Shown here: in pieces, positions 150-47,898 of the stretch | How the letters are laid out: each line of letters starts with the position of its first letter | Position numbering within the stretch: the first letter of the stretch is position 1 | Position numbers and translations under genes: made by a program | Notes under the pieces: generated by a model | Told to the model about the DNA's origin: nothing | The model's input: the letters and a program-made list of their open reading frames with translations, nothing else | The model's database searches: none | Assembly: GCA_016223245.1 (NCBI GenBank) | Contig: JACRPL010000003.1 | Location: forward strand, 74,078 to 138,077 | Length of the DNA stretch: 64,000 nt | Source: Candidatus Saganbacteria bacterium | GTDB taxonomy: Bacteria; Margulisbacteria; WOR-1; XYC2-FULL-46-14; XYC2-FULL-37-10 | Reading direction: 5' to 3'

Positions 150-250
150 CTGCGAATGAACTTCGCGGTTACAAAAAAGGAAGGAGACGTGAGGAAACCG
201 CGACGCTTGTCCCGATTCCCACATCGGGATTTAGTCGCTGGTTTGCGAAC
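150..250 (+). repeat. IS-end-related hairpin repeat in the nadE 5' leader (CTGCGAATGAACTTCGCGGTT...GAAACCGCGACgcttgtCCCGATtcccacATCGGGatttagGTCGCtGGTTTgcgaac)
   Basis: Nested stem-loops read directly; core 45 nt identical to the left ends of IS copies A and B; lacks the terminal GAGTTGCTAA..GGTCTCA. Confidence 0.6.
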
Positions 251-260
251 TTAAAATCAT

Positions 261-1850
261 ATGAAGATCGCGTTGGCGCAAATAAATCCTATTGTCGGTG
301 ATATTCAAGGCAATACAAAAAAGATCACCGATTTTATTAATGAAGCAATAGTACAAGATGCCGATCTTGTTGTTTTTCCGGAGCTTGCGATCGTTGGATA
401 TCCTCCCGAAGATCTGCTTTTAAAACCACAATTTATAACTGACAACTTAGAGGCCCTTAAAGAGATCGCCGCATCATGCGGCAATCTCGCTTGTTATGTG
501 GGGTTTGTCGATAAGAAAAATGACCAGATATTCAATGCTGGCGCATTTATTGTTGATAAAAAAATAAAAGAGATTTACCATAAAAATAATTTGCCCAATT
601 ATTCGGTATTTGATGAAAAAAGATATTTTACGGAGGGCGGTAAATCTTCGGTCATAAGTTTTAGGGGGTATAAAATAGGACTTTCAATATGCGAAGATAT
701 TTGGGTCGAGCGCGGGCCTTATTATGATGAAGCCAAAAAAGGCGCAAAGATAATTTTGAATATCAACGCTTCTCCTTATCACAGGGGAAAGATCAAAGAG
801 CGCGAAAAACTCCTAAGATCAAGAGCCAAGGCTATAAAAGCATATACAATATATGTGAATATGGTTGGAGGGCAGGATGAGTTCGTATTTGACGGTGGAA
901 GCATGGTTGTGAGCCCGGAAGGCGAGGCCGTTGCAGCGGCCAAACAGTTCAAAGAAGAACTTTTTATTTTCGACCTTGGCGGGAAAAAACAGAAAAATAC
1001 ATGGCTTGGCGATCATGATGAAGTTTATGAAGCCTTGTTATTGAATTTAAGGGATTATGCCAGGAAGAATAAGTTTTCCGATGTAATAATCGGCGTTTCG
1101 GGAGGGATAGATTCCGCTTTGACCTTGACTTTAGCTGTTGACGCATTGGGAAAAGATAAAGTCCATGCGGTTTATATGCCTTCCCCATATTCCGCAAGAC
1201 AAAGCCTTGAAGATTCGCAAACGCTTTGCGCAAATCTGGGTTTAGAGCTAAAAGTTATCCCGATCAGCGGCATCTTTTCGACATATCTAAAAGAACTTGA
1301 TCTTCATTTTGAAGGAAAACCCGCCAATATTGCAGAAGAGAATCTTCAAGCAAGGATCCGCGGCAATATCTTGATGGGCCTATCGAACAAATTCGGATAT
1401 TTAGTATTAACAACCGGCAATAAGTCCGAAATGTCGACCGGCTATTGTACATTGTACGGCGATATGGCCGGGGGGTATTCTATGCTCAAGGATCTCCCAA
1501 AAACATTGGTTTATAAGCTTGTCGATTTCAGGAATAAAAAATCGGAAGCGATCCCAAATTCTATCATTGTGCGGCCGCCTACCGCCGAATTAAAACCTAA
1601 CCAAACCGATCAAGACACGCTCCCAGATTATGATATCCTGGATCCCATCATGCAGGCTTATGTTGAAGAAAATAAAAGTATCAAACAAATTGCGGCAAAA
1701 GGATTTGATTCCGCCGTCGTAAAAAAAATAATTGCTATGATCGACAATTCCGAATACAAGCGCCGACAGTCGCCTCCCGGCCCCAAGATCACCCCGCGAG
1801 CGTTCGGCAAAGATTGGCGGCTACCGATAACGAACGGATATAAATCCTAA
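261..1850 (+). CDS. nadE: glutamine-dependent NAD+ synthetase (CN-hydrolase domain fused to NAD synthetase domain)
   Basis: 529 aa ORF; N-terminal nitrilase/CN-hydrolase-like region (FPELAIVGYPPEDLL), C-terminal PP-loop SGGIDS motif typical of NAD synthetase. Confidence 0.85.
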   Translation: MKIALAQINPIVGDIQGNTKKITDFINEAIVQDADLVVFPELAIVGYPPEDLLLKPQFITDNLEALKEIAASCGNLACYVGFVDKKNDQIFNAGAFIVDKKIKEIYHKNNLPNYSVFDEKRYFTEGGKSSVISFRGYKIGLSICEDIWVERGPYYDEAKKGAKIILNINASPYHRGKIKEREKLLRSRAKAIKAYTIYVNMVGGQDEFVFDGGSMVVSPEGEAVAAAKQFKEELFIFDLGGKKQKNTWLGDHDEVYEALLLNLRDYARKNKFSDVIIGVSGGIDSALTLTLAVDALGKDKVHAVYMPSPYSARQSLEDSQTLCANLGLELKVIPISGIFSTYLKELDLHFEGKPANIAEENLQARIRGNILMGLSNKFGYLVLTTGNKSEMSTGYCTLYGDMAGGYSMLKDLPKTLVYKLVDFRNKKSEAIPNSIIVRPPTAELKPNQTDQDTLPDYDILDPIMQAYVEENKSIKQIAAKGFDSAVVKKIIAMIDNSEYKRRQSPPGPKITPRAFGKDWRLPITNGYKS

Positions 1851-1895
1851 AAGCCACTTGACAATATCTACAAAATTGTATATCATGTTACAATA

Positions 1896-3404
1896 ATGAA
1901 GGACATCAAAGCTACTGTTCTTGTAGAAATAAGCGATGTGTTGTCGTCCTCGCTCGATCTTGCCAAAACATTGAATTCCATTTTAAAAGTTCTATCCGAT
2001 TCACTTGGCATGGAGCGCGGAACAATTACTCTTGTCGATCCTAAAACTTCCGAACTTCACATAGAAGTTGCGCATGGGCTCACAAACCAAGAAAAAGAAA
2101 GAGGCAAATATAAAATAGGAGAAGGGATCACGGGCAAGGTCGTTGAGACCGGGAAACCTATGATCATTCCTAATATCGAAGCTGAACCATCGTTTTTGGA
2201 CAGGACGCAGGCAAGAAGGAATTTAAAAGAAAGAAAATTTGCTTTTCTTTGCGTTCCAATAAAGATCGGAAACAAGATCATCGGAGCTCTTTCGGTCGAT
2301 CATTTATTTAAGTCGGATGTTTCTTTTGAAGAAGACATAAAACTGCTAACGATCATTGCTTCGATGGTCGGCCAAGCCGTCATGATCCGCGAAATGGCGG
2401 AAAAAGACAAGCAAGCGGTCGTTTCCGAAAATATAAAGCTTAAGCAGGAATTGAAAGGCAGATATAAATTCAAGAATATCATTTATAGCTCAAGCGTTAT
2501 GGAATCCATGCTTGAAGGCGCGATGCAGGTTGCGGAGAGTTCGGCTACCGTCTTGATACTTGGCGAGTCGGGAACGGGTAAAGAGCTTGTCGCATCGGCT
2601 GTCCATTATTCAAGTCCCAGAGCCAATAAGCCCTTTATTAAAGTAGCTTGCGCCGCGTTACCGGAAAATCTTTTGGAATCGGAACTTTTCGGGTACGAAA
2701 GAGGAGCGTTTACGGGAGCTATGGAGCGAAAGATCGGCAGATTTGAAATGGCCGATAACGGGACGATATTTCTTGATGAAATAGGCGACTTAACGCTCTC
2801 AACTCAAGTTAAGCTTTTGAGAGTTGTTCAAGAAAAAGAGTTTGAAAGATTAGGCGGGACGCAGACGATAAAAGTTGACGTCAGAGTTGTCGCCGCAACT
2901 CATAGGGACCTTTCCGCAATGGTTAAAGATAGGAAATTCAGGGAAGATCTTTTTTATAGGATAAACGTTTTTCCTATTCACCTGCCGCCGCTTCGCGAAA
3001 GAAGAGAAGATCTCCCTGTTTTGATAGACCATTTTATCGGAAAATATAATAAAGAGAACAAGAAAAAGATAAAAGGAATAAATAGGGCGGCCCTAGATGT
3101 CCTTATGGCTTATTCATGGCCCGGAAATATCAGGGAGCTTGAAAATGCAATTGAGCGCGCTGTAGTATTGAGCAAGAAGGATGTTATTACCCCAACTGAA
3201 ATACCGCAAAATATCCAAACGACTAAAGATATTGGAGCGGCTTCGGCTGGGGCAACGCTTCCTGAAATTGTTGAAGCGATCGAGAAGCAAAAAATAGAAG
3301 AAGCTTTAAAGAATTTTAAGACACAGAGAAATGCCGCGCGCGCATTGGGAATAACCGAGAGAATGCTTGGCTATAAAATAAAGATCTATAACATCTCCGC
3401 CTGA
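1896..3404 (+). CDS. sigma-54-dependent transcriptional activator, GAF sensor + AAA+ + Fis-type HTH (NifA-like)
   Basis: 502 aa; GESGTGKE Walker [16 protein letters not shown] sigma-54 interaction hallmark, C-terminal HTH ([19 protein letters not shown]); N-terminal GAF-like region. Confidence 0.85.
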
Positions 3405-3464
3405 TACAAAAATGTATATACATACAATATTGTAATTAACTTGACTAATACCCCTCGTAAATAT

Positions 3465-3481
3465 CTGGTATTATAATTGCT
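3465..3481 (+). promoter_or_regulatory. sigma-54 (-24/-12) promoter for the secreted-protein/amt/glnK operon
   Basis: CTGGTATTATAATTGCT: GG-N10-GC, TTGC at -12; TTGACT/TATAAT-like hexamers nearby are 25 nt apart, so not sigma-70. Confidence 0.55.
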
Positions 3482-3515
3482 CCTACTAGCCCATAATGGG
3501 AAAAAGGAGCGCTTT

Positions 3516-4277
3516 ATGAAAGTAAAAATCGTCGCTATGTCTCTTTGTTTCTATGTCGCTATGTCGCTTTGTCTCATTGTTTCAGCGGGGGCGACGCCGT
3601 CGACGACTTATTGGACGCCATGCGTCTACGATGTCCAAGGTTACGGTGTGTGGCACATTGGTATAGACAACTATTTTACGGCATTAACAAAGTTCACCGA
3701 AACTCCGGGCGCGGGAGCATTTCCTACCGATGTCGGCTTGACGGTCGGCGTACTTCCAGGGGATAAGATCCAGGCCGAAGTCGGGATCGATTATATGGAA
3801 CCGTTAAACGACCCGTTCTTCCTGAACGGAAAAATAGGAATGCCTGAAGGCGCTCTTTTTTCTGGATCTCCGGCCGTGAACCTCGGTATATTTAACGTCG
3901 GCTTGAACCAAGCGACATCCGGGCAGAACATTATCCATCTTGTCCTTGGAAAAGATCTTGGCGCGGCAGGCAGGATACATGCGTGCCCGTATTACACAGG
4001 GAACTTCAGCTCGCTCGGGTTAGGGACAGACAATTCCGGCTGGATGCTTGGATATGATAAAGGGTTTGCGCCAGTTAAGGATTCTTCCGGCGAATACAAC
4101 AGGATTGTTTTTGCGGCAGACTATTCTTCTGGCAATAATGCTTTAGGCGGCGGCGGCTTCGGCCTTTATTATTTCTTTAATAAAACAATTAGCTTGTTAA
4201 CAGGCCCCGTGTTCTTTAACAGCACTGCGCTGAACGGCAAGTGGAAATGGACGACCCAGTTGGATATCAACATATAA
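3516..4277 (+). CDS. secreted hypothetical protein (signal peptide), first gene of a sigma-54-driven operon with amt
   Basis: Start chosen at MKVKIV after AAAGGAG RBS (ORF track begins 3477); hydrophobic signal peptide; Gly/aromatic-rich; no recognisable family. Confidence 0.45.
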   Translation: MKVKIVAMSLCFYVAMSLCLIVSAGATPSTTYWTPCVYDVQGYGVWHIGIDNYFTALTKFTETPGAGAFPTDVGLTVGVLPGDKIQAEVGIDYMEPLNDPFFLNGKIGMPEGALFSGSPAVNLGIFNVGLNQATSGQNIIHLVLGKDLGAAGRIHACPYYTGNFSSLGLGTDNSGWMLGYDKGFAPVKDSSGEYNRIVFAADYSSGNNALGGGGFGLYYFFNKTISLLTGPVFFNSTALNGKWKWTTQLDINI

Positions 4278-4292
4278 AAGGAGGCGAGTAAA

Positions 4293-5995
<1,703 letters not shown>

Positions 5996-6131: not shown

Positions 6132-6159
6132 ACAATATGGGCATAGGAAGGTGTTAGTT

Positions 6160-7377: not shown

Positions 7378-7393
7378 TAAGGGGGAGAATATT

Positions 7394-9131: not shown

Positions 9132-9132
9132 T

Positions 9133-11683: not shown

Positions 11684-11696
11684 TAATGAGACTAGT

Positions 11697-11767
11697 TAGG
11701 AACCTGCAAGTGAACCCTGCCTGCCGGTAGGCACGGCTCGCGGTTTCTGAGTTGCTAACCAGTCTCA
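11697..11767 (+). repeat. partial/variant copy of the IS-end-related hairpin repeat (3' half CGCGGTTTCTGAGTTGCTAACCAGTCTCA)
   Basis: Shares the 3' 29 nt with the left ends of IS copies A and B; upstream part replaced by a different hairpin (TGCCTgccggtAGGCA). Confidence 0.5.
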
Positions 11768-11868
11768 AAATACTTCCCCTCCACTCGGGTGAAATTTTTA
11801 AATTCCCTGCCGATAATATATTGTAGGGGTTTTAACCCCGGATGTAAAGTAAAAACGAGGGAGAAAAA

Positions 11869-13139: not shown

Positions 13140-13611
13140 TGCCGCCTAGGCATGCTTGCCGGTTCTGCTGTAGTAATTTTTGGCTTCATCATGAATGAAC
13201 GACCAATCGAAATCGACCAGTTTAACCAGGATATGAGACGCATAATTGTTCTTGACGTTTTTGGTGAATTCCGCCTCGAAAAGATTTCCGCCGAAACCTT
13301 TTAACTCCTTGAACATAAGACACCTCCTGAATAAGATAAAACAATTATAGCAAACGAGAAAAAGCCGGAAATTCAAGCAGGAGAGAAGCCAATAGAAGTT
13401 GGCAAAATTTCAACAAAGATTTCAAAAAATATTTTTATCGCAATGACAAGATTATTTATCGGCTTTTAAGCTGAATTAGAATAGGGCTTGAGCTCAGTGG
13501 GCTTGACAAGTTATAATGCTATTAGCAAAAGGGCACGAGGAAACCGCGACGCTTGTCCCGATTCCCACATCGGGATTTAGTCGCAGGTTTCCGAGTTGCT
13601 AACTGGTCTCA
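13140..13611 (-). mobile_element. IS5/IS1182-like insertion sequence remnant, copy A (left end + 5' UTR + first 76 codons of transposase)
   Basis: Near-identical to 32095-32510 of copy B; ends in ...GGTCTCA (IRL TGAGACC on the minus strand); transposase truncated at 13146. Confidence 0.6.
13146..13376 (-). pseudogene. transposase N-terminal fragment (DUF772-like, IS5/IS1182 family)
   Basis: MFKELKGFGGNLFEAEFTKNVKNNYASHILVKLVDFDWSFI, nearly identical to the N-terminus of the 31705-32244 ORF; 76 codons only. Confidence 0.55.
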
Positions 13612-13635: not shown

Positions 13636-13878
13636 ATGACAAAAGTTAAAATTAAGGATATTTATAAATTTATCTTAAAAGTCTTCCCTAGTACGCCAAA
13701 CGGGGATTTGTTGGTTGATGTAGAAAATGGCAACAAAATAATATTATCTTCGCCTAATAAAGGTGGTATTGTCAGCAAAACATCCGGTATTTTAAAAATA
13801 AAGACTAATGGCATTCAATTTGAAAACAAATTGCGCCGTTCGGCGAAGAAACGTTTAAAAAGGGAAGTTTCAAAATAA
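13636..13878 (+). CDS. putative VapB-type antitoxin (unrecognised fold), 4 nt upstream of vapC
   Basis: 80 aa basic C-terminus, tightly coupled to the PIN gene; assignment is by position only. Confidence 0.35.
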   Translation: MTKVKIKDIYKFILKVFPSTPNGDLLVDVENGNKIILSSPNKGGIVSKTSGILKIKTNGIQFENKLRRSAKKRLKREVSK

Positions 13879-13881: not shown

Positions 13882-14253
13882 ATGCTTATTGATACCAATA
13901 TTATTATCGACCATCTTCGTGGAGAAGAAAAAGCTTCAGCACTTCTTTCAAAAATAGAAAATGGGATAATAAAAGGGTATATCTCTACGATAGTTGAAGC
14001 AGAGGTCTTGTCCGGTTTCCATCTAAATGCAAGAAAAGTCGAAGAAATTAATAAACTATTAAGCATATTTCAGAGAATTGAAATTGATTCTGAAATTGCT
14101 CAAATAGGAGCAGAGTTTAGGCGCAAATATAGATGCGATTTAATAGATGGCTTGATCGCCGCATGCGCTTGGAAAATGGGAGTAGAGTTGGTTACAAGAA
14201 ATATCCGCCACTTTATTAACATAAAAGAAATTTCTCTGCATCATTTGGATTAG
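13882..14253 (+). CDS. vapC: PIN-domain ribonuclease toxin VapC
   Basis: 123 aa; MLIDTNIIID (Asp5), E40, LIDGLIAA (Asp ~97): canonical PIN acidic residues. Confidence 0.75.
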   Translation: MLIDTNIIIDHLRGEEKASALLSKIENGIIKGYISTIVEAEVLSGFHLNARKVEEINKLLSIFQRIEIDSEIAQIGAEFRRKYRCDLIDGLIAACAWKMGVELVTRNIRHFINIKEISLHHLD

Positions 14254-18833: not shown

Positions 18834-20269
18834 TGGTTGGGGATCCAAGAGGATTTTTAAAAAACAAAAGGATCGCATCGGAATACCGTCCGGTTTGCGA
18901 ACGCGTAAAAGATTATAAACAGGTCTTTGTATTAAGGCCCGATGAAGTGACGCGCGAGCAAGCTCGCCGCTGTATGGATTGCGGAACGCCCTTTTGCCAT
19001 TCAGGATGTCCTATAGGCAATATTATCCCCGAATGGAATGAATTTATATATCACAATCAGTGGCAAAAAGCATTCGATATGCTTAATTCGACAAACAATC
19101 TTCCTGAAATTACCGGCCGTGTATGTCCTGCGCCATGTGAATATGCATGTGTATTAGGCATTAACAATGATCCGGTAACAATTCGTGAAAATGAGCTTGG
19201 AATAATCGAACATGCATTCAAGGAAGGCCTAATTAAAGCAAATCCGCCAAAAGTCCGCACAGGGAAATCAGTTGCTGTCGTAGGATCCGGTCCTGCTGGC
19301 CTTTCATGCGCCGCACAGCTAAATAGCGCAGGACATAAAATCACCGTTTTTGAAAGAGATGAGCAACTCGGCGGCATTATGCGCTATGGTATCCCTGATT
19401 TCAAACTCGAAAAGAGTGTCTTAGACCGAAGAATTGATATTTGGAAGCAGGAAGGCATTGAATTTAAGACAAACACTAATATTGGGAAAGATATTCCTGC
19501 AGAAAAGCTTACAAAAGAATTTGATGCCGTGTGTTTAACAGGCGGCGCGAAATTTCCAAGAGACCTTGCAATAGAAGGACGAAATCTTAAAGGCATTTAT
19601 TTCGCCATGGAATATTTAACCCAATCAAACAAACTTATTGCTGGTGCAAATATAACAGATCCGATTTCTGCAAAGGGAAAGAGTGTTGTAGTTATAGGCG
19701 GCGGCGATACGGGATCTGATTGTGTCGGAACAGCAAATAGGCAGGGAGCTTCATGCGTTGTTCAAATTGAATTAATGCCTATGCCTTCAAAAGATAGGAC
19801 TGAAAACTTCACATGGCCTAAATATCCTTTAATTCTAAAGACTTCTTCAAGCCACGAAGAAGGTGTTACCCGAAAGTGGTCAATTATGACAAAGTCATTT
19901 AAGGGTCAAGGCCATGCCTACCGGCAGGCAGGGTCAAGGGTAATGGGGCTTGAATGTATGCAAGTCGATGAAAAATTGAAAGAGATACCAGGGACAGAAT
20001 TTGAGATCAAAGCTGATCTCGTTTTTCTTGCTTTGGGTTTCTTGGGGCCTGAAAAAACAGGAATGATAACCGAGCTTAGGCTGGAACTCGATCCAAGGTC
20101 AAATATTAAGACCGATGCTAATTATATGACATCGCGCAAAGGCGTGTTCTCGGCAGGAGATATGCGCCGTGGACAATCGCTAATTGTTTGGGCGATATCT
20201 GAAGGGCGCAAGGCCGCGCGGTTAATCGATGAATACTTGGTCGGCGATTCAACTCTGCCTATAATGTAG
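18833..20269 (+). CDS. gltD: glutamate synthase small (NADPH) subunit
   Basis: 478 aa; two Cys clusters and VAVVGSGPAGLSCAAQL FAD/NAD fold; ATG overlaps the gltB stop. Confidence 0.9.
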   Translation: MVGDPRGFLKNKRIASEYRPVCERVKDYKQVFVLRPDEVTREQARRCMDCGTPFCHSGCPIGNIIPEWNEFIYHNQWQKAFDMLNSTNNLPEITGRVCPAPCEYACVLGINNDPVTIRENELGIIEHAFKEGLIKANPPKVRTGKSVAVVGSGPAGLSCAAQLNSAGHKITVFERDEQLGGIMRYGIPDFKLEKSVLDRRIDIWKQEGIEFKTNTNIGKDIPAEKLTKEFDAVCLTGGAKFPRDLAIEGRNLKGIYFAMEYLTQSNKLIAGANITDPISAKGKSVVVIGGGDTGSDCVGTANRQGASCVVQIELMPMPSKDRTENFTWPKYPLILKTSSSHEEGVTRKWSIMTKSFKGQGHAYRQAGSRVMGLECMQVDEKLKEIPGTEFEIKADLVFLALGFLGPEKTGMITELRLELDPRSNIKTDANYMTSRKGVFSAGDMRRGQSLIVWAISEGRKAARLIDEYLVGDSTLPIM

Positions 20270-26314: not shown

Positions 26315-26663
26315 ATACAGAAGCGGTTTCTTTTTGCTTTTTTGGGAAATCAAGCATTTGTACGCCTTCAGCTACAATTTCTGTCGAGGTGCGGTTGTTG
26401 CCTTCCTTATCTTTGTACTTGCTTATCTGAATCCTTCCGTCTACCGCAACGAGCCTTCCTTTCTTAAGGTATTCTCCGCAAATTTTTGCAAGAGGACCCC
26501 AGGCGATGCAATTGAAGAAATCAACTTCCTTTACTCCTTCCTTTTTGAAAGGCCTTTCAACTGCGATCGAAAACCTTGTGATCGGGTTTTCTTTCGAAGT
26601 AAATCGGGTTTCCGGGTCGGCCGTTAATCGTCCAATAAGCATGGTCTTGTTTAATGATGCCAT
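26313..26663 (-). CDS. ssb: single-stranded DNA-binding protein (OB fold), lacks the acidic C-terminal tail
   Basis: Start at MASLNKTMLIGRL; SSB OB-fold pattern; ends ...DFPKKQKETASV without DDDIPF-type tail. Confidence 0.7.
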   Translation of the reverse strand: MASLNKTMLIGRLTADPETRFTSKENPITRFSIAVERPFKKEGVKEVDFFNCIAWGPLAKICGEYLKKGRLVAVDGRIQISKYKDKEGNNRTSTEIVAEGVQMLDFPKKQKETASV

Positions 26664-31282: not shown

Positions 31283-31372
31283 GGAGGGATGGCTGAGCGG
31301 TTGAAAGCGGTCGCCTCGAAAGCGACTATACTGGAAACAGTATCGGGGGTTCGAATCCTCCTCCCTCCGCCA
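31283..31372 (+). tRNA. tRNA-Ser (anticodon CGA), 90 nt with encoded CCA
   Basis: Folded by eye: 7-bp acceptor GGAGGGA/TCCCTCC, D-arm GCT-GAGCGGTTGAA-AGC, anticodon arm GTCGC-CTCGAAA-GCGAC, long variable arm, T-arm GGGGG-TTCGAAT-CCTCC, GCCA. Confidence 0.85.
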
Positions 31373-31704
31373 GTTGAGAAATGTCTTTGTTGGCTCGCCC
31401 GAGGCTAAGGCTCGCCAACCGTTTTTCATAGAAATTTCAAGCCGTTTTGAATTCAGTAAGGCCAAGAGAAAACTTTTTGAATTTTTATTGATTAAGACAA
31501 CCGACATACCCCGAGCGCAAGCTCGAGGGAATATGAGTCTTTTTAGCCCCCTGATATAATTGGAGACAGGTTAGGAAGCGAACATTTTCCGACGGTTTTT
31601 GAAACTAAGCAATTTTTTGAGAGTTTTCCGAGGTTCTAATCTCTAATTGCTGGTTTTTTCTTTCCCATCACCTCCATTCCCCCAATTTTGGAAACAGTTA
31701 ATCC

Positions 31705-32244
31705 TTATGCCGCCGTAGCGGCCGGTTCCAAGGGCGGAGGAGCAGCGAATATTTTCTTGAGATTGTATGCCATGTAAGTTAGCAAAGATTGGGCATGTGT
31801 CTTAAGCTCGCCCCAGTAGCGCGATCTTTTCAGGCGATAACTGCGCTTGCCAACGGCAAAAGGCACCTCGACCATACAGCGCATGCTCCGGGCGTAAACA
31901 TAATCATCGTTGCTTTCTTTAAAAGAGACATTGAGGAAAAAACGGAAAAGAATGTAGAGATTGATGAGTTCTTCAAGCTGGTAGTCGGAATTAAGCTGCA
32001 TCGCCTCTTTAAGAAAAAGTATCTTAAACATCAAAACCGGATCGAAAGCACTCTGGCCATTCTTACTATAGCAATTCTTCGCTTCCTCACGGATGAACGA
32101 CCAATCGAAATCGACCAGTTTAACCAGGATATGAGACGCATAATTGTTCTTGACGTTTTTGGCAAATTCTGCCTCGAAGAGATTCCCGCCGAAACCTTTT
32201 AACTCTTTGAACATAAGACACCTCCATAGAAATGATACAACCAT
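31705..32244 (-). pseudogene. internally deleted transposase (IS5/IS1182 family: N-terminal DUF772-like segment joined to C-terminal ...LLTYMAYNLKKI tail)
   Basis: 179 aa, far shorter than typical transposases of this family; C-terminal AYNLKK motif typical of IS1182/IS5 transposases. Confidence 0.55.
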
Positions 32245-32484
32245 TGTAGCAAATGGCTAAAAAGCTAAAATTGAAATAGGCTAGCCGACTGGGGCGGGCT
32301 TTCTTTTTTGGACAAAAATCCTAAAAATATTTTTTTATCGCCACAAAGAACATCTGACGATTGCTTAATGGCTAGATAAAATGAGGGTTGAGCCCGTGGG
32401 GCTTAACAAGGTATAATGCTATTAGTGAAAGGCTCGAAGAAACCGCGACGCTTGTCCCGATTCCCACATCGGGATTTAGTCGCT

Positions 32485-32499
32485 GGTTTCTGAGTTGCT
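32485..32499 (+). promoter_or_regulatory. sigma-54-like -24/-12 motif embedded in the IS left end, facing outward toward rarA
   Basis: CTGGTTTCTGAGTTGCTA: GG-N10-GC with TTGC at -12; same motif in the copies at 11745-11759 and 13587-13601. Confidence 0.35.
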
Positions 32500-32750
32500 A
32501 ATCGGTCTCATCTTTTCTGATTTGCGACCTTTAATTACGCGAATGCGCGATTTTCTTAAGTTGGTATTAAAAGAATTTGCCGCCAACTGCTTGAAAAGCA
32601 GGCAAGCACAACTTATAATTAGTGTAGCTTGCAGCAAAACTTGAAATCGTCCTTTCCGCCTGCCGAGTCCAGAGAATTTCGCTCGGATATTTTCAAACAG
32701 ACACCGTTCAAACATATAACAAATTGTGATATGTTTGATATACTTATCCC

Positions 32751-37114: not shown

Positions 37115-40087
37115 TTAGTGTTCCGGTGCCGTGATGTTAAGCGGCGAATGCAAAAAAGCAGGAAGATGAGGAACTGTTTCATGTCTGCCAGATTCCAGCG
37201 CTGCCGCTGTCTTTCGAGCAAAATCAATGACATCAGTCGGCAACCCCATTTTCTCCGCTACATCAATACCTGAACTGCGCCCTCTTCCTTCCTGCAATTC
37301 AAACGGCTTATCCCCAAAAAACTCAACCGATAATGGCCGATGGGGAAGAGTGTCTTTTGGCATTCGGTCGACATATTCAAATAGCTCGGTATAGTTGGTT
37401 GTCAAAACTACTTTGGCACTGTGCTTGGCTAAATAGCGGGCAATAGCACTTTGCAAGGCCGCCGCCTCCTCTCCCGAAGTTCCCTTCGCAGGCTCATCCA
37501 AAAAGATCAAAGGTTTTTCGGCGCCCGCATCGGAATCAGCCAAGTCGATCACGCGTTTTAGCCGGCGCAGTTCCCCGGTGAAGGAGCTTGCTTCGGCTGT
37601 GTGGCCGGCAGTTTCGATGGCCGCGATGATCCGCCCAAATTTAGGAATTGAAGCAGAACTGCCAGGAACATATCCAAATTGCTGGCGGCAGAGCGCCGCC
37701 ATGGCCAAACCAAGCGCCGCATGCGTTTTTCCCCCGCCGTTTGTGCCGGTAAGAACCATAACCGGAGTCCCATCAAGATCAGTCGACGGCCAAGAAAGTG
37801 GAACGACTTCATCTGCCGCCATACTGCCGGTTAAGATCGGACTCCTGGATCGAGATAGAGACAGGCTGTCGCTTTCTTCCGCTCGCGCCCATCCCTGCTC
37901 GCGAACTGTCTCGGCAAAACCCAGCAGAGCATTTAGCTCCAGATATTTTTTGTAGAGTGAAGTCAAAGCGGGTACTGCCGTCGACATGGTGGACGCCCAT
38001 CTTTTCCAATTTTCTTTAATAAAGCCCATAATTTGGATCCATATACCATTAGCGTACTCTTGAGCCTCCACCGGGCCAAGCGGACTATTTTCCAATATAA
38101 CAGGATCAATTTTTGGCGCCAAAAGCAAGGATAACTTTGAGTTTATCTTATTAACCAATTCTTGTTTTAATTTTTCCAAATCAAGGCTTGAAATTGCTTC
38201 TTCGATCAACGCCGACACAGCCCCTAGTTCATCCAGAGTAATTTGAGCGGATTCAGGCGCGTCGGGATTGTTGAGGCCTGCATCGGAAAGCGCCAGGCTT
38301 AAAGTGGCAGTGAACCCCAGCCGCTGGCGCAGGCGGGAAAAAATATATATTCTCATTGCTTCAAAATTTAGATAAGCCTTTTTTTCTTCTGCTATATCCT
38401 TTGCCATTGAACTGAAGAGCTTATCAAGCGCCTCACTGGTGTGGCGAATTTTATCTTCTTTGTCATCCCAGTGAACCATAAAAGAACCGTCTTGGGCATA
38501 CCAGAGCAGCAGTCCTTCAAAATAAGCGCCGAACGAAACAGCCGCCTTCATCTCGTCAAACTGCTCTTGCGGCAGTCCCACTAAACTTTGAAACCAGCGA
38601 TAGCGGGATTCTCTCTCTGCTGGAGAAAGCGAGCGGGTAAGCTCCAATCCGACCCAGTGGCCGACCACTCTCGGTATCTCTACGACGCGTTTTGAAAATT
38701 CATGGCTTGGTGCTTCGTCTTCTGGGCGATTGCTTGTTCGTGCTTCTTCTAAAGCTATAGGTGAATTTTCCGCAAAAACCAATGCGGCTGGCCCGATCCA
38801 CAGATAAAATAGTCGGTGATCAATATCGTAGACCTCTCGCGGAACCATTGTCAAATCAATATTTCCCTGCTGATCAACAAATTGTTGTTTATTGTTCCAA
38901 ACCCCGATCTGAAGCGCATCGTAGGGTGTAATTTCAAAATTCTCTGCTGTTTCCCCGTGTTTCCAAGTTTTGACAGGGTCAAGCGCAACGCTGCGTCCCT
39001 CCTTCATGGCCAGGTAAATATTATGAGCTTCCGATACAATTTCATCAGGGTATCCTTCTTTAGCCGCCCGGGCAATGGCGCCGCTTTCTGCGGCACCTTT
39101 CTTCAGATGATGTTCGGAATCAACCGTTAAAATTTTAACTTTTGGATCAATAAGCAGTTCTCCGATTTTATTGTAATGCGTGGAGGCTACAACATAGGCT
39201 CCGCGGCTGATACAGCCGGCAATAAAGCCGCTAAGCAGAGCATAGCCGTCTACCCGCGAGGTGCCGCGCCCTGGTTCATCCATTAAAACAACTGCCGGAA
39301 GCCCCTTTTCGCGAACCCTATCAATTTCCGCAAACACTTCGATGTAGCGCAGTATCTCATTTTGAAAAGCGCTGGCAGTCAGAGTATGGCGGGAAACATT
39401 TACATTCATCTCCAGCGCTCCAACCGGTTCCAATGAAGCGGCTCGCGCAAAAATCGGTATGCCGCGGTTAGCCATGATAATTGCGTTGCCAACCGCTTCC
39501 AAAATATGCGTTTTACCGTTGCCGTTGCCGCCCGAAATGACCCAAACCGGGTTTTGCGGCGAAAGATCTATATCAAAGGGACAAATATCTGCCGCCCCGA
39601 ATAATTTTGGGTTAAATCTGTCCTTGTCAGAAGCCGGATCTTGGCGGAGTACCAGAGTAGGATTTCGCAATTCTTTGAACGAAATGCCCGCCGAAGAGAC
39701 AAGCTCCGGCAAAACTGATGGGATACCCAATTTTTTCGCTTGCTCAAACAATCTTTTCCACATTACGAGCGTATCGTATTCCCGCAGGGCAAGGTAGAGG
39801 CCGCGAACAATCTCTTTATGGCCGGAAAGCAACCTGGCAGTTTGTTCACAAATATAAGGTGGACTGGCCTCTTCCTCGTCTTTTCGGATATTGGTTATTG
39901 CCGAGCTAGACAATACCTTGCGCAATTCTGGGATAAAGAGCGCTTCCAAAAATATTTTTACTCTTAGGGCATTTTCCTGTTCAAAGGGAGTATTGCCAGA
40001 AGCCCAAAATTGTCCAAGTTGTTCTACCCCGCGGAGAAAATTGGCGGGCGAATAAAATAGTCCTCGAAGAAAGTCGCCATGTTTCGC
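37115..40087 (-). CDS. large tandem MutS-domain-V (ABC-type ATPase) protein; 5' end abuts an IS/mtnA-fragment junction (possibly 5'-truncated)
   Basis: Two MutS-like ATPase modules: GGNGNGKTH...LMDEPGRGTS and GTNGGGKTH...FLDEPAKGTS; no ATG near the 40087 junction (first in-frame ATG at ~39772); visibly GC-rich codon usage. Confidence 0.55.
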   Translation of the reverse strand, partial: AKHGDFLRGLFYSPANFLRGVEQLGQFWASGNTPFEQENALRVKIFLEALFIPELRKVLSSSAITNIRKDEEEASPPYICEQTARLLSGHKEIVRGLYLALREYDTLVMWKRLFEQAKKLGIPSVLPELVSSAGISFKELRNPTLVLRQDPASDKDRFNPKLFGAADICPFDIDLSPQNPVWVISGGNGNGKTHILEAVGNAIIMANRGIPIFARAASLEPVGALEMNVNVSRHTLTASAFQNEILRYIEVFAEIDRVREKGLPAVVLMDEPGRGTSRVDGYALLSGFIAGCISRGAYVVASTHYNKIGELLIDPKVKILTVDSEHHLKKGAAESGAIARAAKEGYPDEIVSEAHNIYLAMKEGRSVALDPVKTWKHGETAENFEITPYDALQIGVWNNKQQFVDQQGNIDLTMVPREVYDIDHRLFYLWIGPAALVFAENSPIALEEARTSNRPEDEAPSHEFSKRVVEIPRVVGHWVGLELTRSLSPAERESRYRWFQSLVGLPQEQFDEMKAAVSFGAYFEGLLLWYAQDGSFMVHWDDKEDKIRHTSEALDKLFSSMAKDIAEEKKAYLNFEAMRIYIFSRLRQRLGFTATLSLALSDAGLNNPDAPESAQITLDELGAVSALIEEAISSLDLEKLKQELVNKINSKLSLLLAPKIDPVILENSPLGPVEAQEYANGIWIQIMGFIKENWKRWASTMSTAVPALTSLYKKYLELNALLGFAETVREQGWARAEESDSLSLSRSRSPILTGSMAADEVVPLSWPSTDLDGTPVMVLTGTNGGGKTHAALGLAMAALCRQQFGYVPGSSASIPKFGRIIAAIETAGHTAEASSFTGELRRLKRVIDLADSDAGAEKPLIFLDEPAKGTSGEEAAALQSAIARYLAKHSAKVVLTTNYTELFEYVDRMPKDTLPHRPLSVEFFGDKPFELQEGRGRSSGIDVAEKMGLPTDVIDFARKTAAALESGRHETVPHLPAFLHSPLNITAPEH

Positions 40088-40597
40088 AATGGCGCAAGCA
40101 TTTCTTGCTGGAGAAGATGTTGAAAAGGCAAAAAAAGAGATCGAAGCGACAAGGCCTATGGCGGAAGAGAAAAAGAAATTCAAAATCTCAACATCATTGA
40201 TTTTGTTATCCCGAAAAACAATCAGGCTTTCTGGAAGCAATGGAAGGAAAGCAATGATGATTACGTTTATGCCCGCAATATGCGGCCGATTTGCGAGAAA
40301 CCTTTTGCGGTCGGCAAGCGCAGTTATCGCCTCAAACGATGCCGCTACTGGGGATTACTCAAGACTCATGCCCAATCATTGCTGACTTACATGTCTTACA
40401 ATCTCAAAAAGATTTTTGCCCCGCCGCCTTTAGAACCGGCCGCGATTGCGGCCTAAGGGATAACTGCGCCCAAAATCGGGAAAATGGAGGTGATGGGAAA
40501 AGAAAAAACAGAAATTAGAGGTTAGATACTCAAAACTACTCAAAAAATCGATCGTTTTAAAAACCCTTCGGAAAATATTCGCTTCCTACCCGGTCTC
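40088..40597 (+). mobile_element. IS5/IS1182-like remnant copy C (70-bp duplicated mtnA fragment + transposase 3' end + right IR ...CCGGTCTCA)
   Basis: 40088-40160 is a ~90%-identical copy of 42220-42290 (mtnA); 40250-40450 encodes ...RSYRLKRCRYWGLLKTHAQSLLTYMSYNLKKIFAPPPLEPAAIAA, matching the C-terminus of the copy-B transposase. Confidence 0.55.
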
Positions 40598-40784
40598 AGC
40601 ATAAAACAACAAAACTATCTTATTATAAATACGATTAGAATACAACCCGGCTCGATACCTGCCGAATTAAATTAAACATCTGGAGTGTTCCCGAATGCTC
40701 AAAATAGCTGGCGTAAAAGTGAAATTTCTAAAACTTTCTCCCGATAGATATTTGGTATTACAGTATATAGGAGGAATGATAAAA

Positions 40785-42030: not shown

Positions 42031-43014
42031 ATGAAAGTAAATAGCAAAGATTACCGAACAGTCTGGATGGAAAAGCATTCGGTATTCATGATAGAACAGA
42101 ATCTCCTTCCGTTCGAATTCAAGATCGTTGAACTTAAAAATTATCATGAAACCTGCCATGCGATCAAGACAATGATAGTGAGGGGGGCGGGGGCGATCGG
42201 TGCTACTGCCGGGTTTGCAATGGCGCAAGCATTTCTTGCTGGAGAAGATGTTGAAAAGGCAAAAAAAGAGATAGAAAATACTAGGCCAACAGCCCAAAAT
42301 CTTTTTTATGCGGTCAACCGTGTCTTTTCCTCAAAATCTCCTGCCAAAGAAGCGCAAGCAATAGCAAATGAAGATGCGGCTGCCTGCAAAAAAATAGGCG
42401 AATATGGAAATGAGTTGATAAAAGACGGATTTAATATTGAAACCCACTGCAATGCCGGCTGGCTGGCATTTGTCGATTATGGAAGCGCCCTTTCGCCGAT
42501 TTATGCCGCTAGGAGACAAAAGAAAAAAGTATTTGTTTATGTTGATGAAACAAGACCGAGGGGGCAGGGGGCGCGGCTTACCGCATGGGAGCTTTATAAC
42601 GAAAAAGTTCCTCATAAAATTATTCCCGATAATGCGGGGGCTTATTTAATGTCTCAAGGCAAAGTCGACATGATGATCGTCGGAGCCGATAGGATCGCCA
42701 AAAACCATGATGTTGCAAACAAGATAGGCACATTCGAGAAAGCGATCGCGGCCAAAGAATTCGGCATTCCATTTTATATTGCCGCCCCAACTTCAACATT
42801 TGATAAAAACTGCAAAACAGGAAAAGATATACCGATAGAAGAAAGAAGCGAAAACGAAGTGCTGTACCAGACCGGACCAAGCAAAGCGGGGAAAATTGAA
42901 AAAATATTGGTCGCTTCTCCCGGATCGCATGCGCTAAATCCGGGATTTGATGTAACGCTTGCAAAATATATTACAGGAATAATTACAGAAAACGGCATAA
43001 TAAAACCTTATTGA
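42031..43014 (+). CDS. mtnA: S-methyl-5-thioribose-1-phosphate isomerase family protein (eIF-2B-like)
   Basis: 327 aa; TVWMEKHSVFMIEQNLLPFE and RGAGAIGATAGFAMA motifs of MtnA/e2b2 family. Confidence 0.7.
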   Translation: MKVNSKDYRTVWMEKHSVFMIEQNLLPFEFKIVELKNYHETCHAIKTMIVRGAGAIGATAGFAMAQAFLAGEDVEKAKKEIENTRPTAQNLFYAVNRVFSSKSPAKEAQAIANEDAAACKKIGEYGNELIKDGFNIETHCNAGWLAFVDYGSALSPIYAARRQKKKVFVYVDETRPRGQGARLTAWELYNEKVPHKIIPDNAGAYLMSQGKVDMMIVGADRIAKNHDVANKIGTFEKAIAAKEFGIPFYIAAPTSTFDKNCKTGKDIPIEERSENEVLYQTGPSKAGKIEKILVASPGSHALNPGFDVTLAKYITGIITENGIIKPY

Positions 43015-43060
43015 CATATTTACTCTATCATGATAAAGTAAATCATAGGTTAATATTATC

Positions 43061-44200: not shown

Positions 44201-44276
44201 CAAATAAAATCAGGATTGAACTCGCAGAATATTAGGAATATACTATCATCGAAATCTATCAACGGGAGGCATATTA

Positions 44277-44512
44277 TGAATTTTTTTGCTGATCGTTTCT
44301 TTGGATGGATGACATATGAACCTGTGATCGGCCTTATGATGGTAATATCCGCGCTTGTTTTATTTCTTGCAAATTATAAAAAATCCGAGAAACAGGAAAC
44401 ATTTTGGGAATGGGGAAAGCGCGTAATTGAATCGCTTGTTATCGTCTTATTATTCTTGGGGCTTTTATGGTCGTTCAGGGCGATATTGACCAATTGCCTG
44501 CAGCGCAAATAA
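44277..44512 (+). CDS. small membrane protein (possibly N-terminal piece of a frameshifted membrane protein)
   Basis: Start at MNFFADRFFGW; two TM helices; overlaps the next ORF in another frame. Confidence 0.3.
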
Positions 44513-45075
44513 ATTATCCGGAAGGCTGTTTGACCCCGACAACTATTTCAAAAACTTCGGATGGAAAGGGGACAATCTTGGAATGGAAATTGGATAAAGC
44601 CCTAACGACAGCGGGAATGGGAGTAGCGCTGCCAAAACCCGAACAGCCCGGCGCAAAAGTGAGCCTGGTATTAAAAAACAACCCTTATACTTTGATGCTT
44701 TTGGTGGTAACGATCTGCCTGACATTCTTGATCTTAGGGGAGAAGATCAACTTCTTGGAAATCTCCCTTTTATCAGCGGTCTATTACATCCTTTTTATCA
44801 CAATGGCCTCTGTTTCGGATCATTTCATCGGGTTTTTTGGGTCATTGGCTTTGGGCTCGGCGATGACGCTGTATCTATCGCACTTATTATATAGGAATTA
44901 TCCAAAAGAGCTGATCAGGAAAAATATTTATTATCTTGTGGTGTTTTTTGCTATTATTTATCCGATTTCCGGATTATTCCCAAGCATAGAGGATTCTTTT
45001 AAAGGGGTTGTAAATGTCTGTTTGATAATTTACCTGTTTTTTATCTCGCTTCATTCAAGAATTAATGGTGAATAA
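44467..45075 (+). CDS. integral membrane protein (unknown function)
   Basis: 202 aa, 4-5 hydrophobic helices. Confidence 0.4.
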   Translation: MVVQGDIDQLPAAQINYPEGCLTPTTISKTSDGKGTILEWKLDKALTTAGMGVALPKPEQPGAKVSLVLKNNPYTLMLLVVTICLTFLILGEKINFLEISLLSAVYYILFITMASVSDHFIGFFGSLALGSAMTLYLSHLLYRNYPKELIRKNIYYLVVFFAIIYPISGLFPSIEDSFKGVVNVCLIIYLFFISLHSRINGE

Positions 45076-45367
45076 GGGGAATATTACGTTTAATTTAAGG
45101 CGGATATATTTTGCAGGTTTATTGCTAATATTCCTTCTGCAAGCTTTATCGTATGCTTTGCAAAATAAACATATCTACGATAACGCCGATATTCTTTCTG
45201 GTCCTGACGAGCTGAAACTGGGAAAAACCCTTTCGGAATATGACAAGGCAAGCGATGTCGATATAGAAATATTAACCGTGAAAACCTTGAAAGGCCAAAC
45301 CCCGAGCGACCATGCCGACGTGATGTATAAAAGCTTGAAAGTCGGGAAAAATCCTTCAAATAGCTGA
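45065..45367 (+). pseudogene. TPM-domain (TLP18.3/Psb32-like) protein fragment, apparently truncated
   Basis: 100 aa with signal/TM then YDNADILSGPDELKLGKTLSEYDKASDVDIEILTV resembling the TPM N-terminal half; ORF ends where the TPM fold should continue. Confidence 0.3.
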
Positions 45368-45618
45368 GCTCTTATAATAATTGCCATGAAGGAAGGCGAC
45401 ATCAGGATCGTAAGGTTTGATGCGAAGTATGTCTCTGTTTCGGGGACAAAACTTTTGGTTGAAGACGCGAAGGGCAAAAGAATTGTTGTTGTTACGCCAT
45501 TTATAATAAATAAAGTAATAGAAGCGATAAAGATGATGAAAAAATTCCATGTTTCCATTACTGCGAGGGTTGAAAAACTCGATCCTTTGACCCTGCAGTT
45601 CTTAGGGGTTGAACTTTA

Positions 45619-47898
45619 ATGGAGCAAGAAGCAATATTAAAACTTAAAGTCGTCGGTATGGATAATCCTCACTGCGTTGGGACGGTTGGCGGCGCGATTT
45701 CAAGCTTGCAGGGTATCATTTCAAAAGATCTAAGGGTTAATGAACGAGCGGTCATCAAATATGATCCGAAACTAGTCGGTCCAAGCCAAATAAAAAAAGT
45801 TATCGAAGAAGAAGGCTATACGCCGATCGAAGAGGAAGAACTAAGCCTTGATACGGAAAAACAGGCGCGCCAAGCGGAGATCCGTAATTTAAGAGATCGA
45901 TTTTTTGGGTCTTTTATTCTAAGCCTTCCTTTAATGTATTATATGCTGCATTTGCTTTTTGCCTGGCCAATGCCCGAGTTTATGATGAAAAATGCCGCAG
46001 TTATCGAATTTATTCTAACGACGCCTGTTATGGCTTTTGGCAGCATATTTTTTACGCGAGGGATCGTTTCACTTGTTAAAACAAAAACTTCGAACATGGA
46101 TACCTTGGTATCGCTTGGCGTTGGGGCCGCATATTTATACAGTTTATTTGTGACGATCCTCATTTTATTGGGAAATAATACTCTGGGAATGGCCGACCTT
46201 TATTATGAAGTTGCGGGCTTCCTTGTTTCATTCATATTGCTTGGCAAGTATTTGGAAGCTATAGCCAAGGGTAAGACATCCGATGCCATAAAGAAATTGA
46301 TCGGCCTCCAGCCAAAGACCGCGATGGTTGAAATTTCAGGCAAAGAAACCGAAAAAAATATAAATGACGTCGTAGTAGGCGATATTGTTGTCGTAAAACC
46401 CGGAGGAAAAGTCCCTGTTGACGGGGAGATCGTAAGCGGACATTCGTCAGTTGATGAATCTATGGTTACGGGGGAGAGCATCCCGGTCGAAAAGAATATT
46501 GGCGATAAAGTAATTGGCGCGACCATAAATAAAACGGGTTCATTCAAATTAAAAGCGGAAAAGATCGGAAAAGATTCGTTCTTGGCACAAGTCATAAAAC
46601 TTGTTGAAGAAGCGCAGGGAAGCAAAGCCCCGATTGAAGAGCTTGCGGATAAGATCTCATCCTATTTTGTCCCTACGGTGTTCTTGATCGGCGTCGTTTC
46701 TTTTATTGTTTGGCTGATCGTCGGTCAGACTTTTGCTTTTGCCCTTTCGGCTTTTATCGCGGTCATTATTATCGCGTGTCCATGCGCGTTGGGCCTTGCA
46801 ACTCCTACGGCTGTGATGGTTGGAACTGGACTTGGGGCCGAACACGGCATATTGATCAAGAGCGCCGAGGCATTACAGATGGCCTCGCAGATAAAGACTA
46901 TCGTATTTGATAAAACGGGAACACTAACGAAAGGGGAGCCGGTGGTGACGGATATTGTCCCGGTGGAACCTGCGAATAAACTTCGCGGTTCCACCGGAAG
47001 TTTATCGGAACCGAGACGTTTAGTCTCAGGTTCCGATCTTTTACTATATGCAGCGATTGCTGAAAAGAGGTCCGAGCATCCATTGGCTGAAGCTATATTG
47101 AAAAAAGCCAAGGATGAAAACCTTGAAATTCCCGAACCCGATAAATTTGATTCTGTCTCGGGTAAGGGCGTTGTCGTTTCATATAAAAACGAAGAGATCT
47201 TGTTCGGAAACAGGGGGCTCATGAACGATAAGAAAGTTGATTTCTCCGATATTGAGGGAAAGATACAAGAATTAGAATCCCTTGGAAAGACCGTTATGCT
47301 TGTCGCCAAAAATAATATTTTCCAAGGTTTGATCGGGGTTTCAGATACACTAAAAGAAAATTCGGTCACCGCGGTGAGCATCCTCAAAAAAATGGGGATA
47401 AATGCTTTGATGATAACGGGCGACAATAAGCGGACAGCCGATGCAGTGGCCAAGCTTGCGGGGTTGAGCAAGGCATTAGCGGAGGTATTGCCGCAGGATA
47501 AAGCGGAAAATATAAAAAAGCTCCAAAAATACGGAGATATTGTTGCAATGGTGGGCGATGGGATCAACGATGCTCCGGCTCTAGCGCAGGCCGATATAGG
47601 AATTGCGATCGGATCCGGCACCGATGTCGCGATAGAGACAGGGGAAATCATTTTGGTTAAAGACGATATGCGGGATGTTGTGACCGCGATCAAACTTAGC
47701 AAGTATGCGATGCTAAAGATCAAACAAAACCTCTTTTGGGCTTTTATTTATAATGTGATCGGGGTCCCGGTAGCCGCCGGAGTTTTATATCCTTTTACCG
47801 GACTTTTACTTAATCCGGTAATTGCCGGCGCCGCAATGGCCTTTTCATCTGTTTCTGTTGTAAGTAATTCGTTACTTATGAAGCGGTTTAGGGCTTAA
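45619..47898 (+). CDS. copA: copper-translocating P-type ATPase
   Basis: 759 aa; N-terminal HMA-like domain, CPC transmembrane motif ([13 protein letters not shown]), [17 protein letters not shown]. Confidence 0.9.
46969..47034 (+). repeat. 66-bp hairpin repeat (CTGCGAATAAACTTCGCGGTT...GGAACCGAGACgtttagGTCTCaGGTTCC) in-frame inside copA
   Basis: First 22 nt match 150-171 upstream of nadE; hairpin architecture parallels GAAACCGCGAC...GTCGCtGGTTTC of the IS-end repeat; 66 nt = 22 codons. Confidence 0.6.

Follow-up and report, generated by a model that had tools for sequence, protein, structure and literature searches.

Paired palindromic hairpins at gene starts and in frame within genes of a Candidatus Saganbacteria genome and its relatives

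We analysed a 64,000-nucleotide (nt) stretch of a Candidatus Saganbacteria genome (contig JACRPL010000003.1, positions 74,078 to 138,077; hereafter the window) in which a nested DNA hairpin recurs at five sites: in the leader of nadE, behind the glutamine synthetase gene glnN, at the left ends of two insertion sequence (IS) remnants and in frame within copA. These sites are probably members of an interspersed family of palindromic DNA repeats that spans the lineage, is non-autonomous and copied in trans, and resembles the repetitive extragenic palindromic (REP) doublets forming hairpins (REPINs) and the bacterial interspersed mosaic elements (BIMEs). The original prediction had been that an IS end spawned the element. 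Because doublets of the hairpin are scattered through Saganbacteria-like genomes, both just upstream of gene starts and in frame within genes, essential ones included, the family appears to be lineage-wide and not a mere by-product of an IS. The hairpin doublet is the widespread entity; the IS end and a miniature transposable element with inverted repeats (MITE) in the window are its carriers or hosts.

All five predicted sites exist and stand above chance expectation. The 45-nt core GAAACCGCGACGCTTGTCCCGATTCCCACATCGGGATTTAGTCGC occurs exactly at 194–238, 13540–13584 and 32439–32483, where shuffled sequence is expected to contain none. The 26-nt tail GGTTTCYGAGTTGCTAAYNRGTCTCA (present at 11742, 13586 and 32485) and the 21-nt 5′ hairpin CTGCGAATRAACTTCGCGGTT (150–170 in the nadE leader and 46970–46990 in copA) are likewise expected zero times in shuffles, and the two copies of CTGCGAATRAACTTCGCGGTT are identical save for G versus A where the pattern has its degenerate R. 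Fold z-scores against shuffles are −5.3, −5.0 and −3.4 for the nested hairpins and −7.1 for the copA segment, with the variant at 11694–11771 reaching merely −1.5. A covariance model trained solely on metagenomic copies, and so independent of the window, finds every site (seven hairpins at five sites in 64 kb), scoring 54.9 and 37.8 bits for the copA hairpins, 27.5 and 21 bits for the copies at the IS ends and about 16 bits for each nadE-leader hairpin. The likeness between the copA segment and the nadE-leader copy, which had been matched by eye, holds on proper alignment, since the independent model recovers both; the two are truly homologous. Two further matches of the model, 47277–47330 and 26562–26598, were judged to be chance, the former encoding conserved CopA sequence.

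The anatomy of the family was defined by scanning metagenome contigs with the hairpin-1 22-mer CCTGCGAATRAACTTCGCGGTT, which matched at least 120 contigs; the 119 non-redundant copies among the matches listed are the base of the counts of anatomy and context that follow. Hairpin 1 (F form) reads GGAAACC-T-GCGAA-TRAAC-TTCGC-GGTTTCC and hairpin 2 (R form) GGAAACC-G[A/C]GAC-GTTYA-GTC[T/G]C-A-GGTTTCC. On the opposite strand hairpin 2 presents a hairpin-1-like sequence, so that the unit is an inverted, polar doublet. Each hairpin is about 30 nt long, with a one-base bulge and a 5-nt loop, and the doublet extends over 60–110 nt. The spacer between the hairpins is not conserved, the core of hairpin 2 beginning some 5–40 nt after the hairpin-1 22-mer. 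A perfect hairpin 2 is found no more than 130 nt downstream in 86 of the 119 copies, and a degenerate one in about 10 more. Their order around the 119 matches is always F then R and never reversed; one pair with a GATATT loop, in locus L140, has the opposite order. Hairpin 2 optionally holds an inner hairpin, GCTTGYCCCGA..TCGGG, at a fixed position in its loop, and this long form constitutes the 45-nt core. The inner hairpin is found almost solely within hairpin 2, and is present or absent between apparently orthologous loci (L155 and L228 versus L246; L168 and L198 versus L241). Among the metagenomic copies there is no conserved sequence outside the two hairpins.

The family is absent from the viral contigs, plasmids and phages searched. 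Searches of Rfam 15 returned no RNA family at gathering scores, and noise alone at E values up to 10. We rejected the results of a scan of a 596-Gb genome collection with the 17-mer GGTTTCNGAGTTGCTAA: the pattern is too short, and the 120 listed loci (L001–L120) were all chance matches with no upstream hairpin.

The stems of both hairpins vary in a strongly coordinated manner. Hairpin 2 lay outside the search pattern. Among its 64 aligned copies, 33 have A-U at one stem pair, 30 have C-G and one has U-G, none being unpaired, while the outer pairs alternate between A-U and G-C. Across the alignment, 152 cells are altered on both sides versus 76 in shuffles, and 85.5% of cells are paired versus 25–46% with partners slid. 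Hairpin-1 stems are lengthened by complementary flanks that are specific to each locus (mean 7.8 bp versus 4.3 bp in controls), with 47 distinct pairs among the 62 long extensions. Each arm of the doublet closes on itself; mean flank complementarity is 8.1 bp and 5.4 bp for the two hairpins versus 3.3 bp for an outer closure, and the local stem exceeds the outer closure in 72 of 80 units. Compensatory changes are seen in the covariation of hairpin 2 and in the DNA of the CopA orthologues described below. Pairing is nearly pure Watson–Crick (898 stem pairs versus 9 that are G-U or A-C), which would suit a palindrome in DNA more than an RNA helix under selection; the sense-strand mismatches, six G-U versus three A-C, are too few to separate selection on RNA from selection on DNA. 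Neither hairpin is followed by the T run of an intrinsic terminator, and terminator scans found none on the plus strand; the avoidance of convergent spacers, described next, also speaks against a terminator.

Copies are concentrated on the 5′ sides of genes. By crude calls of open reading frames (ORFs), 94 of the 119 copies among the matches listed are intergenic, a median of 8 nt after the upstream stop codon and 23 nt before the next start codon, and often just 5′ of the Shine-Dalgarno sequence. The element occupies 41 co-directional, 15 divergent and 0 convergent spacers, the background in the same loci being 383, 58 and 71, respectively (divergent versus convergent, Fisher p = 2.8e-5). The element tracks gene 5′ sides because its rate per spacer is about twice as high in divergent spacers, which have two gene starts, as in co-directional spacers, which have one, and is zero in convergent spacers, which have none. 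Orientation bias within co-directional spacers is weak (30 versus 17). The flanking genes have unrelated housekeeping roles (for example ligA, truB, tpiA, fba and mutS), with no regulon evident.

At least about 12% of copies are located in frame inside genes. Those supported by Pfam are in MutS (two loops, four contigs), LeuRS (two contigs, same position), MiaA, RtcA and a MiaB-like radical-SAM protein, and copies inside ORFs occur in both orientations. Hairpin 1 is open in five of six reading frames and hairpin 2 in four or five, depending on the variant. The idea of two independent, opposite-orientation insertions in MutS was not upheld, the alignment also allowing a single old doublet with later rearrangement. 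A 48-residue composite peptide used as a query for further in-frame copies gave no candidates.

The CopA protein of the window is 100% identical to an NCBI protein assigned to Candidatus Saganbacteria. In copA, both hairpins are in frame on the plus strand: hairpin 1 at 46960–46997 (37.8 bits), with its stem extended by CCGGTGGAA/TTCCACCGG, and hairpin 2 at 47004–47037 (54.9 bits, E = 6e-13). As the original prediction stated, the segment corresponds to 22 codons between the DKTGT and SEHP motifs; compared with the solved structures of CopA, which lack it, the segment is inserted. The loop between these motifs is mostly 35–45 residues long among about 120 CopA orthologues, three of which (P0004, P0005 and P0052) have the same insert in the same loop. 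Four organisms therefore carry it, including that of the window (69–76% identical; the named relatives are Margulisbacteria-type), confirming that a copy can persist in frame within an ORF. The 6–23 kb covered of the contigs of the three other organisms hold no related transposase, and the presence of the insert in their CopA proteins, an outcome that the original prediction had named as its own refutation, leaves an IS-derived origin unsupported. Across the four orthologues, flanking third-codon positions are 34–37% identical whereas the hairpin bases are 93–98% identical. The stems differ by compensatory changes, GGAACC/GGTTCC versus GGAGCC/GGCTCC, GCGAA/TTCGC versus GCCCCGG/CCGGGGC and GTGGAA/TTCCAC versus CTGGAA/TTCCAG, the last of which alters amino acids. 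In a rough neighbour-joining tree, which is suggestive only, the insert-bearing CopA proteins are scattered among insert-free ones; on these sequences, either repeated insertion at one loop or repeated loss could account for the scatter. The CopA loop of other orthologues (P0006–P0061) holds further repeat-like inserts, NPKSQ.., GHESRVASR.., LPAGRQV and ..IASSQAPRNDE, which are also scattered over the tree.

Comparison of strains with NrnA proteins of at least 90% identity reveals turnover at gene junctions. The nrnA and truB genes are 2 nt apart in some strains, separated by a 92-nt, doublet-containing segment in L193 and by a different, CCAAT/ATTGG-rich palindromic repeat in L247. At the junction of truB and ligA, the genes overlap in L247, while L193 has a doublet, with a new ligA start codon after the insert, and L251 has another repeat. 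Such filled and empty junctions in close strains indicate that the element is gained and lost over short times. Several palindromic families share stop/start junctions as landing places. At L193:2064–2162, the insert seemingly split the overlapping truB and ligA genes, giving ligA its new start. The CCAAT/ATTGG-rich repeat (L247:4446–4585 and L251:5143–5239; also in L248 and L252–L257) is found in strains without the GGAAACC doublet there, and in L251 it lengthens the C terminus of TruB.

From these data we infer how the element might move, how its copies might evolve in concert and how it might act on RNA. It would be a non-autonomous, hairpin-forming DNA segment that an enzyme encoded elsewhere copies to new sites. 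Its sequence would be kept uniform by further copying or by gene conversion between its copies, and its arms would be kept complementary by template switching within the palindrome or by selection. Copies would survive where harm is small, in the gap from a stop codon to the ribosome-binding site that follows, and also in the surface loops of proteins, the latter because four or five of the six frames are open per hairpin. Once transcribed, a copy would put two stable stem-loops in a 5′ leader or operon junction, where mRNA stability or translation would likely be affected, either as a side effect or in a co-opted role. The IS1182/IS5-like element carries one copy just inside its left terminal inverted repeat (TIR), behind an outward promoter-like site, and an 81-bp element at 11687–11767 is a TIR-bounded derivative.

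Several results weigh against a repeat family that is copied in trans. Target-site duplication, which would mark transposition of the DDE type, gives no general signal, the longest flanking direct repeat having a mean length of 4.5 nt versus 4.2 nt in controls. By tblastn, no related DDE transposase was found in 643 kb of flanking DNA, and no REP-associated tyrosine transposase (RAYT) or other Y1 enzyme in the window and the 643 kb of loci, the queries being an IS200-type TnpA from groundwater contig L122 and an approximate Escherichia coli RAYT. The statistics of gene context rest on crude ORF calls. Moreover, the absence of copies from convergent spacers and their extreme conservation could equally mean host function and not selfish spread.

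A serious rival, or an additional layer, is a host function at 5′ leaders, in view of the 5′ bias, the promoter-like sites and an upstream ORF (uORF) in the nadE leader. The doublet would give a lineage-specific protein a sequence-specific site for binding or a signal for processing, or would be an mRNA-stabilising 5′ stem-loop; a portable promoter or leader cassette would bear it, and selection, not selfish copying, would maintain it. We regard this as unlikely. The spacer bias, with divergent spacers filled at about twice the co-directional rate, would follow from such a role, but the neighbours are unrelated housekeeping genes that form no regulon and orientation in co-directional spacers is biased only weakly. 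Selection would also keep hairpin bases identical where synonymous sites are saturated, as in copA; the near absence of G-U pairs is, however, unusual for a selected RNA stem, and the family has no Rfam match. Promoter-like sequences accompany some copies: a site about 20 nt upstream of the hairpin is conserved in both IS remnants, and TGnTATAAT lies inside the spacer of L192, L194 and L240. A subfamily at eight distinct loci (L128, L132, L148, L149, L164, L173, L182 and L234) is a cassette of about 150 nt, comprising in order CTGAAATTT, about 25 nt, TATATAAGAAAATCAAAGGCTC, the doublet and GAGCTTATGTTC. It lies upstream of, and co-oriented with, the downstream gene wherever that gene could be called, and resembles a mobile promoter or leader. 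Copies within ORFs, in both orientations, cannot serve as leaders, however, and close strains are without the element at the same junction.

The leader of nadE bears on the same question. Hairpin 1 (F form, CC-T-GCGAA-TGAAC-TTCGC-GG) is at 138–180 on the plus strand, the corresponding covariance match being at 137–180 on the minus strand (16.3 bits), and its outer stem, CCTTTTTT/AAAAAAGG, contains two mismatched pairs. Hairpin 2 (R form) follows at 194–244 on the plus strand, with the exact 45-nt core and the inner hairpin GCTTGTCCCGAT..ATCGGGA. The nadE start codon, ATG at 261, has no Shine-Dalgarno sequence. A 21-codon uORF, which runs from GTG at 189 to TAA at 254 and has AAGGAGA before its start, spans the whole nested hairpin and ends 6 nt 5′ of the nadE start codon. 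Reading through the hairpin in this way favours host function, and the arrangement suggests that translation of the uORF may be coupled to that of nadE.

A related reading, which we consider quite unlikely, is that the doublet is a portable 5′-leader or operon-junction module recognised by a dedicated Saganbacteria/Margulisbacteria protein, whether a regulator or nuclease that binds the hairpin or an HUH-type enzyme domesticated along with the doublet. Its sequence would be actively maintained even inside essential ORFs, and its insertion would favour stop/start junctions, at times duplicating the start codon (L153 and L193). If true, the module would represent a novel type of mobile expression signal that has an insertion mechanism of its own.

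In the IS-derived explanation, the hairpin would form the subterminal part of the left end in an IS1182/IS5-like element, whose DDE transposase, acting on the TIRs, would have moved the dispersed copies as MITEs or solo ends. This explanation is very unlikely for the family, and fits the TIR-bounded minority only. The hairpin is indeed at the left ends of the two IS copies, A and B, just inside the TIR of an IS1182/IS5-like element, as predicted; the copies themselves are decayed fragments and not intact ISs, as is true of all three IS copies in the window. Homology between the remnants (about 13145–13611 in A versus about 32040–32510 in B) ends exactly at GGTCTCA, that is, at the 17-nt TIR TGAGACYRGTTAG[G/C]AAC, and the nested hairpin is 2–3 nt inside this repeat in both, in favour of an IS end. 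On the minus strand the remnants encode fragments of a DDE transposase with DUF772 that score as IS1182/IS5-like, which places the hairpin between the IS terminal repeat and the 5′ end of the transposase gene.

Remnant A comprises a 56-residue N-terminal transposase fragment (13149–13316, minus strand; 87.5% identical to P0001 by tblastn and alignable with remnant B), a sigma-70-like promoter match TTGAGC-18-TATAAT (13488–13517, plus strand) pointing outward through the hairpin and IS end, the nested R-form hairpin (13539–13592, plus strand; −34.6 kcal/mol, z-score −5.3, 27.5 bits) and the TIR TGAGACCAGTTAGCAAC (13595–13611, minus strand), where homology with remnant B stops. In remnant B, the opposite terminal repeat GGAGACAGGTTAGGAAG (31562–31578, plus strand) is a weaker match with three mismatches. 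It is followed by an internally deleted transposase ORF of 179 residues (31705–32244, minus strand), IS1182/IS5-like and retaining DUF772 and the C-terminal end of the DDE domain, an outward promoter-like match TTGAGC-18-TATAAT (32388–32417, plus strand), the nested R-form hairpin (32438–32491, plus strand; 21 bits) and the TIR (32494–32510, minus strand). A search for transposase homologues yielded two fragments only, one of which was not placed on any contig.

The variant site, predicted as 11697–11767, exists but spans 11687–11767 (plus strand), with TIRs on both sides. This 81-bp element begins 3 nt past the glnN stop codon and consists of a TIR (11687–11703), one F-form hairpin (11699–11747) with the palindrome CCCTGCCTGCCGGTAGGCACGG nested at 11715–11736, and a second TIR (11751–11767). 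The predicted MITE-like derivative thus exists. TIR-like ends also surround the full doublet in L170 and L181, and L245 has a TIR beside hairpin 1. A few copies (L153, L155 and L162) have flanking direct repeats of 9–13 nt, which would fit the IS1182 family, whose target duplications are variable; the repeat in L153, AATGGCTAAAAGA, includes the downstream start codon and that in L162 a −35-like TTGACA. Set against these points, a TIR adjoins only about 3 of at least 120 metagenomic copies (L170, L245 and, weakly, L157), and the copies in copA, nadE, MutS and LeuRS are without one. The TIR-adjoining hairpin, moreover, has opposite polarity in the MITE and the IS remnants. Together with the lack of a conserved flank beyond the hairpins, of a related transposase in the 643 kb and of any intact IS copy in the window, and with the CopA insert in other organisms, these results leave the claim that the IS end spawned the family unsupported.

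The palindrome nested in the MITE hairpin belongs to a second small family, CCTGCCTGCCGG(C/T)AGGCAGG, with copies at 11715–11736, about 19911–19932 and about 59633–59653, and in L123, L178 and L203. The copy at about 19911–19932 is read in frame within gltD (..GHAYRQAGS..) and has the direct repeat GGTCAAGG on both flanks, and that at about 59633–59653 is in frame near the N terminus of a FeoB-like protein (..MPAGRQV..; ORF 59599–61419). In L178 and L203 the palindrome breaks hairpin 2.

A nitrogen-responsive riboswitch or leader RNA common to nadE, the gene after glnN and the gltB operon has next to no probability, and was dropped because the element is found next to unrelated genes: the window does hold a nitrogen-metabolism cluster (nadE, a sigma-54 activator, three amt-glnB pairs, the type III glutamine synthetase gene glnN, a PCMT-fusion gene, a small ORF, a PIN-domain gene, gltB and gltD), with copies preceding nadE, the PCMT-fusion gene after glnN and a vapBC-gltBD block, but a further copy precedes mgsA and another is inside copA, elsewhere the element precedes or interrupts unrelated genes, no Rfam family matches, and conservation falls on the bases of the stems and not on those of loops or junctions.

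The family, read as an interspersed palindromic repeat, shares features with several known systems. In Proteobacteria, REP doublets (BIMEs, REPINs) form hairpins and are mobilised by RAYT transposases (PMC3337134, PMC3116915). As in REPs and REPINs, the elements described here are imperfect palindromes of about 20–30 nt in inverted pairs, with a spacer variable in length and sequence; they occupy many loci, mostly extragenic by crude ORF calls, with very uniform sequence, persist within a lineage and are absent from phage and plasmid collections. They differ in that the two arms fold separately, whereas a REPIN doublet folds as one long hairpin, and in that tblastn with an approximate probe found no RAYT in the window and 643 kb of loci. 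REPs favour 3′ ends, whereas our copies lie on the 5′ sides of genes, with none between convergent genes. A further difference from REPs is the share of copies in frame inside genes, at least about 12%, and the host belongs to an uncultured, Cyanobacteria-related phylum.

In-frame persistence is instead a property of Rickettsia palindromic elements (RPEs), which lie in frame in unrelated housekeeping genes at structurally tolerant positions and add a conserved peptide (PMC10969869). The copies in MutS, LeuRS, MiaA, RtcA, the MiaB-like protein and CopA resemble these. By description, RPEs are set apart by their size (about 100–150 bp, versus a hairpin of about 30 nt and a doublet of 60–110 nt), by their restriction to Rickettsia and by the mostly intergenic location of our copies; kinship in sequence would not be expected. 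IS-derived MITEs such as Correia and Nezha, with IS1182/IS5-type parents, are similarly small, non-autonomous and hairpin-forming, and the elements at 11687–11767, L170 and L181 carry the TIRs of a co-resident IS. Unlike such MITEs, the great majority of copies here are without IS TIRs or regular target-site duplication, and the conserved part is the internal palindromic hairpin and not the ends. Cyanobacteria reportedly carry small dispersed repeats as well, very short hairpins that nest in one another and in larger repeats; these are alike in nesting and in belonging to a related phylum, and differ in sequence.

We found no description of such a repeat in the literature on Saganbacteria or Margulisbacteria repeats and palindromes. 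With this family, the REP/REPIN, MITE and RPE phenomenon would reach an uncultured lineage that is sister to Cyanobacteria. Its mix of traits is unusual: a REPIN-like doublet and RPE-like in-frame persistence are combined with a strict bias to gene 5′ sides that is known for neither. Hairpins that are 93–98% identical in orthologues with saturated synonymous sites offer a natural system for studying how palindromes stay uniform, be it by gene conversion, template switching or selection. The repeats explain odd insertions in annotated CopA, MutS and LeuRS proteins, and also likely assembly breaks in metagenome-assembled genomes of the group.

Further features surround the IS remnants. Between remnant A and gltB, an 80-residue ORF with a good Shine-Dalgarno sequence (13636–13878) is directly 5′ of the PIN-domain gene (13882–14253). 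The two are probably a vapBC-type toxin–antitoxin pair, which the outward promoter-like site of the IS would transcribe. The right end of remnant B comes about 190 nt after a transfer RNA with a long variable arm (31283–31369). The third IS remnant (40145–40598, plus strand) consists of a C-terminal transposase fragment (40145–40429) and a terminal repeat (40582–40598), with no hairpin at that end. Just 5′ of its transposase fragment is one copy (40083–40156) of a 74-nt direct repeat, the other copy of which (42214–42287; 92% identical) is about 2.1 kb away. In groundwater contig L122, the IS terminal repeat follows the transposase stop codon, and an IS200-type Y1 transposase gene (L122:690–1445) adjoins the IS1182-like fragment. 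Two hairpins lie 5′ of this Y1 gene, CCCTGTGG..CCACAGGG and CCCTGCGC..GCGCAGGG, both unlike the family sequence.

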